DNA of 64,000 nucleotides, taken from the IMG/VR virus record IMGVR_UViG_2928595623_000002, positions 1 to 64,000 of that record. The stretch is one strand, 5' to 3'. Made by a program: the position numbers and the translations under genes. The DNA is from a virus. Its lineage: Duplodnaviria > Caudoviricetes. This document shows positions 3,133 through 25,404 of the stretch, one piece after another. Position 1 is the stretch's first letter. Each line of letters begins with the position of its first letter. The notes under the pieces were generated by a model, which saw nothing but the letters and a program-made list of their open reading frames with translations, ran no database searches and was not told the DNA's origin.

Positions 3133-3395
3133 CGCCTTGCATCCATCTGGTAACTTGTTTCTGTTTTACCGAGCCCAAAGCCGGCGGATGTTCCGATCAC
3201 TGCCAGCGCAAGCACCGTCCAAAGTACGCCGATGAATGCCGTGTGCATCTGATGGCGCCATTCCGCGATCGCTGCTTGCTTGATCGAAGTTGCCGTTTCA
3301 GACAGCGCCTTAGACGGACAGCGGCGGCAGGTTTCTCCGCCGTCACCTGCACATCCTCCAGCACCGTAGCGCGTGCAATTCGTAGCGTGTGTCAT
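3129..3395 (-). CDS. Hypothetical Cys-rich membrane protein
   Basis: Coupled ORF with one hydrophobic helix. Confidence 0.5.
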   Translation of the reverse strand: MTHATNCTRYGAGGCAGDGGETCRRCPSKALSETATSIKQAAIAEWRHQMHTAFIGVLWTVLALAVIGTSAGFGLGKTETSYQMDARR

Positions 3396-3574
3396 GCTTC
3401 ACCGCCTTTTCCTGCCATGGCATCAAGCTCTTTAAGAGCCAGTTCAATGCCTCTGTTGACGATCTCTGTATACGATATCCTATAAGGCCCAATTGTAGAC
3501 GCGCGCTCCAATGTGTCCCGCTGCTCGTCTGTTAGCCTAATAGTGAGTGTTTTCTTCTTCTCTTTGGTTCTCAT
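3392..3574 (-). CDS. Ribbon-helix-helix (Arc/CopG-like) DNA-binding protein
   Basis: KTLTIRLTDEQ beta-ribbon followed by two helices. Confidence 0.65.
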   Translation of the reverse strand: MRTKEKKKTLTIRLTDEQRDTLERASTIGPYRISYTEIVNRGIELALKELDAMAGKGGEA

Positions 3575-3852
3575 TCGTCACCTTTGTTAGGTGGAAGTGG
3601 CTTCCATTCGGACGGCTTTATAGACGCGATGCCATCGGCGTTGCTTCCCCAGCAGACGCCGTCATGCCAGCAGTCTGGCGGCTCTTGATCTTCAACGATC
3701 ACCCAGCAACAGCAGTTGTTGCCGTCTTCATCGAAAAACCCGTGTGTCCAAGCGATGACATAATCAGAACCGTATCCAGGTATCTTTGCCTGAATTGGCG
3801 TGCCATCTCTCGGCGCCGTTTCGATCGGCTGCCATGCGCTTGCGTCAGTCAT
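3571..3852 (-). CDS. DUF551-like phage protein
   Basis: WQPIETAPRDG ... WKPLP motifs. Confidence 0.75.
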   Translation of the reverse strand: MTDASAWQPIETAPRDGTPIQAKIPGYGSDYVIAWTHGFFDEDGNNCCCWVIVEDQEPPDCWHDGVCWGSNADGIASIKPSEWKPLPPNKGDE

Positions 3853-3862
3853 TTCCTCGTCC

Positions 3863-3928
3863 TTTTCGTATGTATGGTTGAACTTGTATCGTATATATGA
3901 TATTCAGTCAATATCGTACATACGAAAA
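3863..3928. promoter_or_regulatory. Divergent promoter region with three palindromic TCGTAYRTAYG boxes
   Basis: tcgtatgtatgg 3866, tcgtatatatga 3889, tcgtacatacga 3914. Confidence 0.6.
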
Positions 3929-3973
3929 AGGTGAAACTTGACTCAGGCAAAAGACTCCGCTTTATCTCGGCGC

Positions 3974-4138
3974 ATGGGACGCAAGAAACAATTTCAGAGC
4001 CGCATCACGCTTCCGTTGACTGACGAGATGATCAAGCGGATCGATCAAGTTCGCGGTGAAGACGAAGACCGCGTTACCATGATCAGGTCTGCCATCGACG
4101 CTGAACTAGAGCGCCGTGAAAAGGCCGATAAGAAGTAA
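3974..4138 (+). CDS. Ribbon-helix-helix regulator, opposite to the operon
   Basis: MGRKKQFQSRITLPL...MIRSAIDAEL RHH pattern. Confidence 0.7.
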   Translation: MGRKKQFQSRITLPLTDEMIKRIDQVRGEDEDRVTMIRSAIDAELERREKADKK

Positions 4139-4333
4139 TCAGCGGTTCTCATCCCATCGCACATAGAACGACAGCCCGTCCTCGTTTGCCTTGATGTGGA
4201 ACACCGTTTCACCCTGCATGCACAGCGTCTTTGCAAGTCGCTCCCATGAAATGAAGCCGGTGGTGCCAGTTGGCGCGCTATCGACCACAAGCGCCCGTTG
4301 GCCTTCTTGAATTGCGATGTTCATGCTTTTCAT
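4139..4333 (-). CDS. Hypothetical phage protein
   Basis: ORF with GAGG RBS. Confidence 0.55.
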   Translation of the reverse strand: MKSMNIAIQEGQRALVVDSAPTGTTGFISWERLAKTLCMQGETVFHIKANEDGLSFYVRWDENR

Positions 4334-8179: not shown

Positions 8180-8862
8180 TATGCAGCCTCCCCAAATGCG
8201 AGTCTCATCTTGCGGTGAACAGCGCGGACGCGTTCGACGTCCTGCCGGCAGTACGCCGCTATTTCATCGTGACGGCCTTCCGCGAACATCTTTCCAACCA
8301 TAGAGCCGTCAATGTCGCCCTTGCCTTCAATGCCAAGCGCACGGCAAAGGTTATCCAGGCTGATCGTGTCACGCGCTCCGGCCCATGCTGTCATGGTATC
8401 GAATACGTTCGCATCCCATGGCTTAGGATCACGCGGAAGCCACGACGGCGCACGGATGCCAAGGACAATGCAGCGCTGCCAGATGAAGCGGATGTCGAAG
8501 CCGACGACGTAGTGCCCTACGATCTTAGTGGCTCTGTATTGGTCTATGTATTGGTCAACGGAACAGAAGAAATTGGTTATGATATCAGCCTCATTTTCAG
8601 GAGAAAATTCAGTCATGCTGAATGAGCCCGTTGAAAGATTATCAACAGCCCAGCCAATGCAGCAGATATGACCGAGCGCACCGTTCAGTGCCGTCTTCGC
8701 AATAGCTTCTTCGACAGCCGCCGGCTTCTGTTCAGCTTCCCAAGCTGCGATCGTGTCAGCTTTCTTCATGGATGCAGGCGGCTTGACGCTGTCTGCGATC
8801 TGCTGGCGAACTGCTTCGGACTGTGCCGGGATGCTCTCAATATCGAGGTATAGCGTCGTCAT
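8179..8862 (-). CDS. DEDD 3'-5' exonuclease (RNase H-like)
   Basis: LYLDIES, GH...FDIRFI, YCRQDV. Confidence 0.85.
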   Translation of the reverse strand: MTTLYLDIESIPAQSEAVRQQIADSVKPPASMKKADTIAAWEAEQKPAAVEEAIAKTALNGALGHICCIGWAVDNLSTGSFSMTEFSPENEADIITNFFCSVDQYIDQYRATKIVGHYVVGFDIRFIWQRCIVLGIRAPSWLPRDPKPWDANVFDTMTAWAGARDTISLDNLCRALGIEGKGDIDGSMVGKMFAEGRHDEIAAYCRQDVERVRAVHRKMRLAFGEAA

Positions 8863-9535: not shown

Positions 9536-9781
9536 TTAGCCGTAGCCGGAGCCGTCGCCGTAGCCGGAGCCGGAGCCGTAGCCGTAGCCGTAGCCGTAGC
9601 CGTAGCCGTAGCCGTAGCCGTAGCCGTAGCCGTAGCCGTAGCCGTCGCCGTAGCCGTAGCCGTAGCCGGAGCCGTCGCCGTAGCCGTAGCCGTAGCCGGA
9701 GCCGTAGCCGGAGCCGGAGCCGTCGCCGTCGCCGTCGCCGTCGCCGATTTCGTAGTCTTCAAAAGCAAGAGCCTTATTCAC
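9536..9781 (-). CDS. Gly-Tyr/Asp/Ser repeat low-complexity protein
   Basis: 12-aa leader plus 69 aa of strict G-X alternation; GTGA overlap with upstream gene. Confidence 0.7.
   Translation of the reverse strand: MNKALAFEDYEIGDGDGDGDGSGSGYGSGYGYGYGDGSGYGYGYGDGYGYGYGYGYGYGYGYGYGYGYGSGSGYGDGSGYG
9539..9745. repeat. Hexamer tandem repeat (GCCGTA/GCCGGA/GCCGTC), ~34 units
   Basis: Directly visible; 11 perfect GCCGTA at 9575-9640. Confidence 0.98.
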
Positions 9782-10164: not shown

Positions 10165-10241
10165 TGTCGCCTCCGTTGGGTTGATAACCAGCCGCCCGTT
10201 TCGTCGTCCTTGGAGCATCATTCGTGCGGCTTGCGAGGAGT

Positions 10242-10313
10242 ACTGTAGCAGCAACATAAAACGTGTCAACATAAATCGTGTTGAAAACGACCGGAGCAAC
10301 ACAAAAAATGTTG
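10242..10313 (-). promoter_or_regulatory. pL promoter and OL operators
   Basis: TTGACA-16-TACAGT on minus strand; CAACA-N7-TGTTG at 10267 and 10297, imperfect copy at 10252. Confidence 0.8.
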
Positions 10314-10334
10314 CGCAATTGATCTAATAGGGGC

Positions 10335-10369
10335 AAAAGAAAAACGCCGGAGGGATGATCCTGCCGGCG
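10335..10369 (-). terminator. Intrinsic terminator for leftward (cI-direction) transcription
   Basis: CGCCGG...CCGGCG stem followed by U-tract on minus strand. Confidence 0.65.
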
Positions 10370-10567
10370 CTCAAAGCAAAACACGAAGCAGCACAAGCCG
10401 CGGAGTGTCAAAAAATGATGCATTATGCCTAACACATCAAAAAAATAGATGGAATAGGATAATGTTGTTTTGAGGCGTGAAAAGTTGATTTTTTTGGGTC
10501 TGCTCGGAGGTTCCCGCCAAAAATATTCAACCAGAAACGCAAAGGCAGCGGTTTTTAGAAGTTTCGC

Positions 10568-10913
10568 CCGCGTCGCCTATCATCAGGTATATGAAATGGA
10601 CGCGGTGCCGATGCCAGGCTCATCGGACGAAGTTACACGGGGTTGATGGCCCGCCGGAAACACAGTTTTGCAAACTGCCGGACAACCGATAGCACCTTTC
10701 GAGGATGGAGGCGAAAGCCGCCAAATGTTTCTACAGAGTTCCGATTGTACCGCCTGACCAGCGGGAGGATGTAGACCTCAAGCCCTGTAGCGGCAGGGAA
10801 AACAAACCGAGCTATCGGGGTATATGGACTTCATGGATGCTTGGTGCGTAGCTAGCGCACATGGCTGGTGCTCCTCCTCAGGACCATCATTAGACTAGGT
10901 TATGCCTATGATA
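10568..10913 (+). ncRNA. Candidate large structured ncRNA of unknown family
   Basis: No ORF of 60 aa or more; many nested stems, GAAA and UUCG loops, long-range pairing. Confidence 0.5.
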
Positions 10914-10941
10914 CTGGTGGCAGGTTGTTTGAAGTGAATGA

Positions 10942-11742
10942 TCACATCTTTGTGAAACGACCGACTACGCGGCCAACTATTCTGAATTCATCGAATGCTC
11001 TGATTACGGGCGGCTCGTCTGGTGACGCCTCAGAAACAATGCGGTAGGCCGGCGGGTGAGACGATGTTACTTTCTTGAGCGTCTTAGCCTGCAGCACGCC
11101 GTCCCCGTCATCGATCACATAGACAGCGTCACCCATCCAAGCGTTTTGCGAGACGTCCACTAGAATACGATCGTTCGAGCGTAGCACGGGCTCCATAGAA
11201 TGTCCGATCACTGGAAGGACGATAATCTGTGACGGCGCCGCGTCAAGCGCATTGCGGATATAGCCGGGCGGAATAAGCCATTCGTTGACGACTGGATGCC
11301 CGGTGGCGATGCCATTAGAAACGACGCGCGCCGATCGGTCGTCAATCTGCCCTTGTCCAAGCCCAGGGCGCGCTGAGAACTCAGGAGAAGACCCGCTAAT
11401 CGTTCGATTGAACGTGATAAGCCCATCGACAAGAGCGCCGCCGTTGCCATCCCATTCGTCGCCATTCTCGTTTTCTGGCTGATCTGGGTCAAATGAGCTG
11501 ACGATGCGATATGGCGCCGGCTTTGACGGACGTTCTACATTCTCTCCGGTAAGCAGGTATGCCGCGCTCGTATTGAATTTGCGGGCGTACTTCTCTGCCA
11601 TATCAGGCGAAAATTCATTTTGTCCGTTTTCATGCGCACGATAACTCGAAGCTGAAACGCCGAGCGCAGCCGCTGCCTTTGAAGCGGATTCAAAGCCCGC
11701 TTCCTCTCTCATTTTTTTGAGTCTTTCGCCCATGCTTGTCAT
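10942..11742 (-). CDS. cI: CI-like repressor (XRE HTH + S24 peptidase)
   Basis: N-terminal HTH; GHSMEP serine and downstream lysine; divergent from cro. Confidence 0.93.
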   Translation of the reverse strand: MTSMGERLKKMREEAGFESASKAAAALGVSASSYRAHENGQNEFSPDMAEKYARKFNTSAAYLLTGENVERPSKPAPYRIVSSFDPDQPENENGDEWDGNGGALVDGLITFNRTISGSSPEFSARPGLGQGQIDDRSARVVSNGIATGHPVVNEWLIPPGYIRNALDAAPSQIIVLPVIGHSMEPVLRSNDRILVDVSQNAWMGDAVYVIDDGDGVLQAKTLKKVTSSHPPAYRIVSEASPDEPPVIRAFDEFRIVGRVVGRFTKM

Positions 11743-11765
11743 GGCCAGAAGGTTTTCAGAGTTTG

Positions 11766-11805
11766 CAACACAAATCATGTTGACAACGCAACATATATCG
11801 TGTTG
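11766..11805. promoter_or_regulatory. OR operators and pR
   Basis: caacacaaatcatgttg 11766, caacatatatcgtgttg 11789; TTGACA at 11780. Confidence 0.85.
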
Positions 11806-11814
11806 ATTAGTGCC

Positions 11815-12114
11815 ATGAACATGATCACAGAAATCGAAACAGTTGATGACATCGTCTCGGTACTCGGCGGGAACGCCTCGATGGCGAGGGTGATTTGTAA
11901 GGGCCCGTCTGCTGTCTCTGAGATGAAGAGACGCGACAGCATCCCGGTCGAATACTGGCCTGCTATCGTAGCTGAATGCGCGACATTAGGGCGCGACGAC
12001 ATAACGCTAGAGGCGATCGCAACTGTCATGGCGAATGCAGCGATGAGACGTCGAGGTGGGCGCGAAAAGCTACGCCATGACGTGTTCCGTGAGACAGCGC
12101 AGGAGGGCGTGTAA
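11815..12114 (+). CDS. cro: Cro-like repressor
   Basis: LGG...MAR...SAVSEMKRRDSIPVEYW; position. Confidence 0.8.
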   Translation: MNMITEIETVDDIVSVLGGNASMARVICKGPSAVSEMKRRDSIPVEYWPAIVAECATLGRDDITLEAIATVMANAAMRRRGGREKLRHDVFRETAQEGV

Positions 12115-22740: not shown

Positions 22741-22817
22741 GCCTGCATAGCTCAGCTGGATAGAGTCCATTCCTTCTAAGAATGTTGTCGCAGGTTCGAG
22801 CCCTGCTGCGGGCTCCA
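22741..22817 (+). tRNA. tRNA-Arg(UCU)
   Basis: GCCTGCA/TGCGGGC acceptor, CATTC-CTTCTAA-GAATG anticodon arm, GGTTCGAG T-loop, encoded CCA. Confidence 0.9.
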
Positions 22818-24051: not shown

Positions 24052-25404
24052 ATGACACCTGTAAAGCTTACGGAGAAGCAGAGAGAGGCTAACAGGCTTC
24101 TTGCTGGCCCCGCGCGGAACATCATGCTACGCGGCGGCTCCCGGTCTGGGAAAACGTTCGTTCTCGTTAGGGCTCTTGTCCAGCGAGCGATCAACGCGCC
24201 TAGATCGCGTCATGTTATATTTCGTTTCCGGTTCAACCATGCAAAAACATCGGTATGGTCGGACACGCTGCCAAAGGTCTTGCTGCTGTGCTTCCCTTCT
24301 CTGAAGGTGCGGTTCGACAAGACGGACTTTTACGTAGAGCTTCCAAACGGATCTCAGATCTGGATTGCAGGGCTTGATGACAAGGAGCGGGTCGAGAAGA
24401 TCCTTGGGCAGGAATACGCCACGCTCTATTTCAACGAAAGCAGCCAGATCCCATGGGCATCCGTCGAAATGGCGATGTCGCGCCTTGCTCAAAAGGTTGA
24501 ACTGGCGACTGAGATAGCGAAGGCAACGGGTCGTACACACCTGGCTCTCAAAGCCTACTTCGATTGCAACCCGCCATCTAAGCTCCATTGGAGCTATCAG
24601 ATGTTTCGGGCCAAGGTAAAGCCGGGGACAAAAGAGGCGCTGGCCAAGCCGGAAGACTATGTAGAGATGCAGGTCAACCCGGTTGATAATTCGGCCAACC
24701 TGCCTTCCGAATACTTTGACGTGCTTGCCTCGATGTCAGCTGCAAAGCGCTTGAGGTTCGAGGCAGGAGAATGGGCAAGCGAAGTCAGTGGTGCGCTATG
24801 GGCTCTTGAGGATCGTTTGGCGCCTGACGGCAAGGTTATGCCTGGGATAGATAGCCTTCGCGTTTCCAGCGCTCCTGACCTGCGCCGGATCGTTGTTGCC
24901 GTAGACCCGTCAGGAACGCGTGGTGATGGCGGTGGCGATGACATCGGTATTGTGGTAGCTGGGCTTGGTATTGATGGCCATGGCTATGTTCTGCACGATG
25001 GAACGTGCCAGTTATCCCCGGAAGGATGGGGCCGGCGGGCTGTTGACCTTTACCACAGGTTCGGAGCGGACAGGGTCATAGGTGAGCGAAACTATGGCGG
25101 CGATATGGTGAGGTTTACGATCGCCACAGCTGACAGGAAAGTTCCTTTCAAAGAGGTTGTCGCAAGCCGAGGCAAGGTCGTCAGAGCGGAACCTGTAAGC
25201 GCGCTCTATGAACAAGGGAAAGTTCACCATGTCGGGTCTTTCCCTGATCTTGAAGATCAGATGAGCAATTTCACTCCTTCTGGCTATGTCGGTGAAGGAT
25301 CTCCGGACAGGGCTGACGCCCTTGTTTGGGCATTGACGGAACTCATGGTGAAGGAACAGCCGGCGGCGGCTGTCTTTGGTACGTATTCAGGAACGACGAG
25401 ATGA
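24052..25404 (+). CDS. terL: Terminase large subunit
   Basis: GGSRSGKT Walker A; AVDPS nuclease domain; SPDRADALVWAL. Confidence 0.95.
   Translation: MTPVKLTEKQREANRLLAGPARNIMLRGGSRSGKTFVLVRALVQRAINAPRSRHVIFRFRFNHAKTSVWSDTLPKVLLLCFPSLKVRFDKTDFYVELPNGSQIWIAGLDDKERVEKILGQEYATLYFNESSQIPWASVEMAMSRLAQKVELATEIAKATGRTHLALKAYFDCNPPSKLHWSYQMFRAKVKPGTKEALAKPEDYVEMQVNPVDNSANLPSEYFDVLASMSAAKRLRFEAGEWASEVSGALWALEDRLAPDGKVMPGIDSLRVSSAPDLRRIVVAVDPSGTRGDGGGDDIGIVVAGLGIDGHGYVLHDGTCQLSPEGWGRRAVDLYHRFGADRVIGERNYGGDMVRFTIATADRKVPFKEVVASRGKVVRAEPVSALYEQGKVHHVGSFPDLEDQMSNFTPSGYVGEGSPDRADALVWALTELMVKEQPAAAVFGTYSGTTR

Follow-up and report, generated by a model that had tools for sequence, protein, structure and literature searches.

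A conserved RNA element between OL and the cI-type repressor gene

We analyzed 64,000 nucleotides (nt) of phage DNA, positions 1 to 64,000 of the IMG/VR provirus record IMGVR_UViG_2928595623_000002 (this whole stretch is called the window below), in which the gene layout is lambda-like. Variation among homologs indicates that an element at about 10474 to 10907 of the window, about 435 nt long and most likely encoded on the + strand, is a non-coding RNA gene of an uncatalogued family that is present once per genome in temperate phages. Our best guess, to which we assign a probability of about 0.45, is that the product is a trans-acting folded RNA or RNA-protein complex (RNP) of the GOLLD/ROOL kind, made from a free-standing gene on the + strand and containing at least 16 helices.

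An earlier note on this DNA had proposed a structured non-coding element at 10568 to 10913, between cI and the left operators (OL). The observation itself is confirmed, and its interpretation is supported in part. The element is real, but the coordinates given for it miss about 95 nt at the 5' end, including an invariant hairpin at 10497 to 10523 that is its best-conserved piece. The placement in the genome is correct: a repressor gene with helix-turn-helix (HTH) and S24 peptidase domains (10942 to 11778, - strand, convergent with the + strand RNA) is on one side and a pair of operators (10267 to 10313) is on the other. This is the position of a rexAB-type exclusion cassette. However, the protein genes cotranscribed with cI that define such a cassette were not found here, as there is neither an open reading frame (ORF) of ≥60 amino acids (aa) nor a kept frame. 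The 639 bp from OL to the cI stop codon contain no credible genes. In agreement with the earlier note, the ORF listing for 10436 to 10941 has nothing of 60 aa or more; the largest ORFs, both on the + strand, are 58 aa (10470 to 10646) and 59 aa (10868 to 11047, entering cI).

Covariation supports a fold of 16 helices

An RNAalifold model of 16 full-length homologs in the + orientation has 80 base pairs in 16 helices. (Alignments were made with MAFFT and HMMER, with no covariance model, and divergent subfamilies are imperfectly aligned in them.) Standard pairs fill 95.4% of the paired cells, compared with 83.5 ± 0.5% in shuffled alignments and 35 to 43% in slid controls. Both sides are changed in 42 pairs (shuffles, 19.3 ± 2.4; slid controls, 10 to 19), so that compensatory change among homologs, which the earlier note had suggested checking, is far above the level in shuffles. 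The covariation score is 0.383, versus 0.170 in shuffles and at most 0.082 in slid controls. None of 500 shuffles attained any of the observed measures; these figures are not probabilities, because the structure was built from these same, mutually related sequences, but the margins are nonetheless large. In helices 8, 9, 13, and 15, the majority of pairs are changed on both sides. At more than 400 nt and with many covarying helices, the element has the attributes of a large ornate RNA.

The fold begins with an extended hairpin (10474 to 10540, +; helices 1 to 4) made of three stacked stems (10474 to 10478 with 10536 to 10540, 10483 to 10487 with 10527 to 10531, and 10491 to 10497 with 10517 to 10523) and an inner 3-bp stem (10505 to 10507 with 10514 to 10516). 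Among 33 sequences, 12 of the 17 pairs in the three stacked stems are changed on both sides, with A-U/G.U/G-C series on the + sense; for the 5' domain as a whole, the count is 16 of 29 pairs, versus 5.8 ± 1.7 when shuffled. Within this hairpin lies the invariant motif, UUGGGUCUGCUCGGAGGUUCCCGCCAA (10497 to 10523, +), which includes a Shine-Dalgarno-like GGAGGU. The stem that flanks the motif covaries, and its pairs 1 to 5 are Watson-Crick in 38 to 47 of 49 instances. A conserved linker, GGCAGCGGUUUUUA (10544 to 10557, +), follows; it can pair with 10568 to 10574 (a pairing we call Px) or, through 10550 to 10555, with 10880 to 10885. The latter is the long-range closing helix (helix 5), which is 100% paired in the 16 homologs and has one-sided changes only.

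Every stem named in the earlier note was located in the sequence, and the core ones are conserved in the 16-sequence + strand alignment. The stem ccgcgtc/gacgcgg corresponds to helix 6 (95% of cells paired), and its ccgcg/cgcgg portion (10568 to 10572 with 10601 to 10605) encloses a small hairpin (10576 to 10578 with 10585 to 10587), so that helices 6 and 7 together occupy 10568 to 10605 (+). The hairpin ccgatg/catcgg (10608 to 10626, +; helix 8) has a conserved CCAGGCU loop; it is 100% paired in the 16 homologs, with both-sided changes in 4 of 4 pairs, and in 34 distinct sequences its pairs 1 to 6 are Watson-Crick in 23 to 34 of the 34. Next is a central multi-helix domain (10629 to 10832, +; helices 9 to 15), which is closed by helix 9 (10629 to 10634 with 10827 to 10832; 6 of 6 pairs changed on both sides). 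Its interior pairings are 10638 to 10641 with 10650 to 10653; 10654 to 10657 with 10678 to 10681, together with 10664 to 10668 with 10672 to 10676; 10686 to 10693 with 10811 to 10818; 10750 to 10753 with 10761 to 10764; and 10783 to 10787 with 10794 to 10798. Among the stems proposed earlier, ccgg/ccgg plus cagttt/aaactg correspond to helices 11 and 12. Both-sided changes are seen in 4 of 7 pairs of ccgatagc/gctatcgg (helix 13) and in 4 of 5 pairs of ccctg/caggg (helix 15). The UUCG and GAAA hairpins (10696 to 10721) are present in the window, but they fall in a variable insert that has other hairpins in homologs. The tctaca/tgtaga stem (10730 to 10735 with 10770 to 10775) appears to covary in an alignment read by eye only. 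The 3' part (10844 to 10907, +; helices 16 and 5) consists of the gtgcg/cgcac hairpin (helix 16, 10844 to 10848 with 10854 to 10860; both-sided changes in 4 of 7 pairs), the 3' strand of the closing helix (10880 to 10885), and a conserved tail that extends to about 10907.

Upstream of the 5' hairpin, the stretch between the terminator described below and the fold (10425 to 10470, +) has a hairpin that differs in each subgroup, with a shared UA(N)CA..AAC loop element recognized by eye. This hairpin may be part of the RNA or of its promoter region.

The earlier note had also proposed a long-range pseudoknot between 10578 to 10591 and 10901 to 10913. The complementarity is there in the window, with a duplex energy of -19.0 kcal/mol (z = -3.1), but it is not conserved; z ranges from -1.13 to +0.97 in 15 other homologs, and the mean of the 16 sequences is -0.14. 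A different alternative pairing does fit the alignments. In 33 sequences, the CCGCG at 10568 to 10572 pairs downstream with 10601 to 10605 (Pb) in 99.2% of cells with zero both-sided changes, and it pairs upstream with 10544 to 10551 (Px) in 94.4% of cells with 2 both-sided pairs. Px is mutually exclusive both with Pb and with the closing helix (10550 to 10555 with 10880 to 10885). The choice between Px and Pb plus the closing helix could be a conformational switch, or one of the pairings could be spurious.

These patterns also bear on whether the element encodes an RNA. That it is instead a decayed protein gene, or a DNA site for packaging, recombination, or protein binding, is extremely unlikely. 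An invariant 27-nt motif is something that a DNA site can have, and we infer an RNA gene from sequence alone; the variation, however, obeys RNA pairing rules with G.U intermediates, no reading frame is kept, and the element occurs as a single copy per contig in two distinct genomic contexts.

The element belongs to an uncatalogued family

Homologs were sought at the outset by searching 80 loci of repressor relatives with the sequence of the gap. A related stretch is present downstream of the repressor gene in 5 of these 80 loci, and the intervening genes differ among the five. In all six sequences (the five loci with cI synteny plus the window), the 27-nt motif is identical. Scanning viral contigs for the motif identified 27 contigs, or 33 with a looser form, with one copy per contig, and a scan of a metagenome collection added 75 further contigs with one copy each. 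With the window, the total is 109 instances with 91 distinct cores. An nhmmer profile made from 10 full-length sequences matches 54 of the 109 instances at E < 1e-20 (46 of them non-redundant), aligned over at least half of the element; the remaining instances match around the motif only.

A cI-type repressor gene is present on the strand opposite the RNA in 22 of 34 family loci that have at least 2.5 kb of flank. One candidate ORF was scanned in each of 7 remaining loci; three encode an S24 peptidase, two an HTH domain, and one a protein kinase, and one has no domain. Based on these synteny counts, we regard the RNA as a fixed neighbor of the immunity operon beside a variable accessory-gene slot. 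In one locus (L088), the slot between the repressor side and the RNA holds a gene for a 346-aa Ser/Thr protein kinase (3209 to 4249, - strand). Protein kinases of this kind are often linked to phage exclusion. In three loci (L082, L090, and L085; duplicates, L158 and L167), the RNA is directly followed on the same strand, 330 to 820 nt from the motif, by a gene for a small HNH endonuclease. An association with HNH endonucleases was considered as a family trait and was dropped, as only 3 distinct loci have it.

Comparison with Rfam 15, which includes models for GOLLD, ROOL, HEARO, RNase P, tmRNA, and group I and II introns, had been recommended in the earlier note and yields no family for the element. 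At the gathering score, the whole window matches tRNA only. When 10200 to 11050 was searched on both strands at E values up to 10, there were four weak hits (on the terminator, and one inside cI) and none within 10474 to 10907, and 12 other family loci gave zero matches. These results support an undescribed structured non-coding RNA, whereas no pointer to the ribozyme that had been suggested as an alternative was found in them. ARAGORN detects no tmRNA and a single tRNA-Arg, 11.8 kb from the element. A blastn search with the element gave zero matches among GenBank phages and PLSDB plasmids, and a literature search at the level of listings and abstracts turned up no element like it. A small protein spanning the motif was considered as well and rejected; the frame is not kept, and the open length downstream varies from 0 to 149 codons among homologs.

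The repressor's nearest relatives in isolated phages are those of Brucella phage BiPBO1 (36% identity) and Sinorhizobium phage phi2LM21 (29% identity). Neither of these two phages has the element or a comparable gap after the repressor gene. Judged solely by these nearest repressors, the hosts of the family are probably Alphaproteobacteria.

The + strand is probably the functional strand

We put the odds that the + strand is the functional one at roughly three in four. On the same alignment, RNAalifold gives -132.0 kcal/mol for the + strand and -110.8 kcal/mol for the - strand, with 108 predicted pairs (35 compensatory) versus 92 (27 compensatory). The minimum free energy (MFE) is lower on the + strand in 39 of 43 homologs, by a mean of 10.0 kcal/mol, even though the G+U content is near 0.5. 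Three covarying helices that are predicted on the + strand only contain 116 wobble cells of the + type and 8 of the - type, in A-U/G.U/G-C series. In the hairpin at 10608 to 10626, there are 11 + wobbles and 4 - wobbles. Unpaired positions on the - strand would be rich in C (28.8%).

Our initial reading was of a - strand RNA with a terminator at its end, and it was revised after the strand tests (alifold energies, pair counts, wobbles, and MFE). The - strand was initially preferred because a covarying intrinsic terminator follows the element there and because the - strand model covaries too. This terminator, assigned to the cI operon (10334 to 10371, - strand), lies outside the + strand fold and consists of an interrupted 11-bp stem followed by UUUUUCUUUU. 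It has the expected GC-rich stem (hairpin at about 10345 to 10371) and U run (10334 to 10344) and includes the conserved UUUUCUUUU. Simple scanning overlooked it because of a bulge in the stem. The stem covaries according to alifold, and among 46 non-redundant sequences, individual pairs occur as GC in 23 and CG in 22, as CG in 24 and AU in 22, and as GC in 34 and CG in 11.

If the - strand were the functional one, cI operon transcripts in the lysogen would carry a long, structured 3' untranslated region corresponding to the element, from which a stable RNA might be processed. The sole recognizable terminator after cI lies beyond the element on that strand and covaries, and the 92-pair - strand model with its 27 compensatory pairs is itself a covarying one. 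Some wobbles are of the - type, with 9 in the penultimate pair of the 10608 to 10626 hairpin and an excess of 16 to 6 in the outer pair of the 10576 to 10587 hairpin. We nevertheless consider this quite unlikely. The alifold energy of the - strand is 21 kcal/mol worse, its MFE is the weaker one in 39 of 43 homologs, the three covarying helices would contain 116 A.C mismatches alongside C-rich unpaired positions (28.8%), and in the sister cluster described below, the - strand is antisense to the surrounding operon.

With one mismatch allowed, the pattern CAACA-N7-TGTTG occurs 4 times in the 64 kb of the window, each time perfectly, and from their positions we assigned two copies as OL operators (10267 to 10283 and 10297 to 10313) and two, between cI and a cro-like gene, as right operators (OR; 11766 to 11782 and 11789 to 11805). 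A possible imperfect third OL copy was seen by eye at about 10253 to 10269. Directed toward the RNA is a promoter-like site, TTGAAA-17-AAAAAT (10281 to 10309, +; 9 of 12 consensus matches; presumed active). One OL operator overlaps the -35 hexamer at its edge, and the other contains the -10 hexamer. Because this site overlaps the OL operators, relief of repression probably turns on synthesis of the RNA, in the direction convergent on cI.

A GC-rich sister cluster in a second genomic context

A GC-rich sister cluster, comprising 21 of the remaining sequences and one more assigned by eye, shares the hairpin and the linker that follows it; the nhmmer matches span 75 to 130 nt around the motif. 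A separate model from 13 sister sequences has 63 pairs, 35 of them compensatory, and other likenesses in the 3' part were seen by eye only. The sister RNA is about 500 nt long, and in all three contigs with enough flank (L112, 7216 to 7717; L156, 3389 to 3890; and L111, 26 to 527) it precedes one or two small ORFs and a large terminase gene that are encoded in the same direction. The other six of nine sister loci with listed flanks have no recognizable terminase gene adjoining the RNA; ORFs scanned there include a resolvase and a DUF1186/SEC-C protein. An HNH gene was also seen after the large terminase gene in the sister cluster.

This second context supports the + strand and argues against a role restricted to immunity. 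The suggestion in the earlier note that the element serves immunity or the lysis-lysogeny decision is not borne out; an RNA of the same superfamily upstream of terminase argues against a function tied to the immunity region.

The sister cluster also raises the possibility that the RNA is a cis-acting + strand leader that opens a long lytic unit of the same orientation and acts on the transcribing polymerase or on the message that follows, for example by processive antitermination or as an RNA switch. This is what the arrangement in the three terminase contigs looks like, every lytic gene to the right of the element in the window is on the + strand, and two mutually exclusive pairings that both fit the alignments are expected of a switch. 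We regard a leader as unlikely, though deserving of consideration. Its next gene should be a co-directional ORF, and this was found in the 3 sister contigs only; in most family loci, the window included, what follows downstream is convergent, either cI (as in the window) or inserted accessory genes. The rightward operon is already served by the promoter PR at OR, and 6 of the 9 sister loci with listed flanks lack a recognizable terminase gene beside the RNA. Finally, known antitermination RNAs are several-fold smaller than the element.

Possible modes of action

In the mode of action that we favor, the gene would be transcribed from the promoter whose hexamers overlap both OL operators. It would be silent in the lysogen and the RNA would be synthesized upon infection or induction, convergent on cI, as an early lytic RNA. 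The folded RNA itself, working in trans or as part of an RNP, would be the active product, rather than a plain antisense RNA. The invariant GGAGGU hairpin could be a docking module for the anti-Shine-Dalgarno end of ribosomal RNA or for a conserved protein, and Px versus Pb plus the closing helix might provide a conformational switch.

Several observations weigh against this reading. Single-sequence folding energy, which the earlier note had treated as a potential refutation, is no better than that of shuffles; z is 0.17 (10540 to 10930) and -0.55 (10474 to 10907) for the + strand and 0.10 and 0.20 for the same stretches of the - strand. We accept the element as real despite this result because covariation among homologs outweighs energy. 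The invariance of the motif in the later loci is by construction, as those loci were selected by the motif, and only the first six sequences are unbiased in this respect. Some of the motif-only instances, particularly those without the first motif bases, may be chance matches to an 18-base pattern. With respect to strand, wobbles in pairs that are predicted on both strands number 35 (+) and 20 (-), and only 16 and 14 in the covarying subset, and pairs predicted on the - strand alone include 268 G.U cells, although most of these are at positions that do not vary. Strictly counted, tetraloops number 9 (+) versus 5 (-) of 73, which is a weak difference. Of the features that the earlier note took to favor the + strand, the wobbles lean to + as the energies do and the tetraloops do so weakly; the strand call is not a clean one. 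If the cI transcript ends at the 10334 to 10371 terminator, as we suppose, the - strand of the element is transcribed in lysogens. No + strand terminator was seen, and the 5' and 3' limits given for the RNA are approximate. The + promoter is proposed from 9 of 12 consensus positions in a single phage, and a search of the homologs for one at a shared position yielded just a subgroup-specific 8-of-12 match and scattered hits. In addition, a search of the 64-kb window for targets complementary to the invariant loop returned just the loop's own antisense.

One alternative makes the structure incidental: a + transcript started at OL would simply lower cI expression during lytic growth as an antisense or convergent device. 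Such a transcript would be convergent on cI, the promoter-like site overlaps the operators, and the cI transcript, if it extends as we suppose, has its 3' untranslated part opposite the element and is complementary to the whole of it. We find this very unlikely, as 42 covarying pairs, conserved loops, and an invariant hairpin are not needed for simple antisense action. The conserved part also ends 35 nt short of the cI stop codon, in other phages accessory genes of varied length and on either strand lie between the RNA and cI, and the sister cluster has no convergent target.

A further proposal is, in our estimation, on the unlikely side. The element might belong to a new class of large phage RNA that works as an early lytic machine, expressed from an operator-controlled promoter; it would dock on the ribosome (anti-Shine-Dalgarno end) or RNA polymerase through the GGAGGU hairpin and, by toggling between two folds (Px versus Pb plus the closing helix), redirect host translation or transcription to phage development. 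The family would then have arisen independently of GOLLD, ROOL, and the few other large bacterial RNAs without an assigned function, alongside which it would stand.

Other features of the window

The left end of the window encodes an integrase (1 to 1119, - strand), and an early left operon on the - strand encodes a single-stranded DNA-binding protein (SSB), ERF, an exonuclease, and a DUF6948 protein. A PL-like promoter for this operon, TTGACA-16-TACAGT, is present at 10242 to 10269 (- strand; 10 of 12 consensus matches). Within the operon, an ORF at 9536 to 9781 (- strand), derived from a tandem hexanucleotide repeat, encodes near-pure Gly-Tyr/Gly-Asp/Gly-Ser repeats, and a related locus (L040, about 8183 to 8653) has a Pro-Glu-Gln/Ser-Glu-Gln repeat ORF at the equivalent place. 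The cro-like gene is at about 11800 to 12114 (+). The only tRNA gene of the window, tRNA-Arg with anticodon TCT, is at 22741 to 22817 (+), about 1.2 kb upstream of the large terminase gene (24052 to 25404, +), the product of which shares 73% identity with the large terminases of two phages listed as infecting Synechococcus, whereas the closest relatives of the repressor are in Brucella and Sinorhizobium phages.

Comparison with known systems

Large, intricate bacterial and phage RNAs of unassigned function are few, and each has so far yielded new biology or a new RNA architecture. The family described here is tractable, with deep covariation, dozens of diverse members, and a defined place in a classical genetic switch, and its invariant loop provides a concrete handle for partner capture. 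It also indicates that the accessory slot on the repressor side can hold RNA genes, which are overlooked by protein-centered annotation.

GOLLD and ROOL are the closest parallels. Like them, the element is several hundred nt long, has many covarying helices, is encoded by phages or prophages, and has no known protein partner or function. For GOLLD, an increase during lysis and the pull-down of ribosomes have been reported (10.1101/2024.12.08.627333). To the extent that this report can be compared with our predictions, the element may resemble GOLLD in timing, given its presumed cI-repressible promoter, and perhaps in ribosome contact, given its exposed GGAGGU loop. In contrast to GOLLD and ROOL, the element has no match to their Rfam models, and it does not lie in the tRNA-island neighborhood that is often theirs, the sole tRNA gene of the window being 11.8 kb away. 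Its place beside the immunity region is fixed, and its hosts apparently belong with the Alphaproteobacteria and not with Firmicutes, rumen, or lake lineages.

With lambda rexAB, the element shares the slot between cI and OL, and the accessory genes between the repressor and the RNA vary (a kinase gene in L088 and HNH genes in three loci). It differs in that what is conserved is an RNA rather than a protein gene, and because it is probably on the strand opposite cI, it is likely not expressed in the lysogen, unlike rexAB.

Lambda oop and P22 sar are short hairpin antisense RNAs. The element is similar to them in being convergent or antisense to a regulatory gene of the immunity region, but at about 435 nt and 16 helices it is far more elaborate, and its conserved part lies outside the cI coding sequence. 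The put-type RNAs of HK022 are folded antitermination RNAs located just downstream of an operator-controlled early promoter. The element is likewise folded and just after an operator-controlled promoter-like site, and sister copies head a packaging operon; unlike put RNAs, however, it is several times larger and in the window faces cI, so that no operon is entered.
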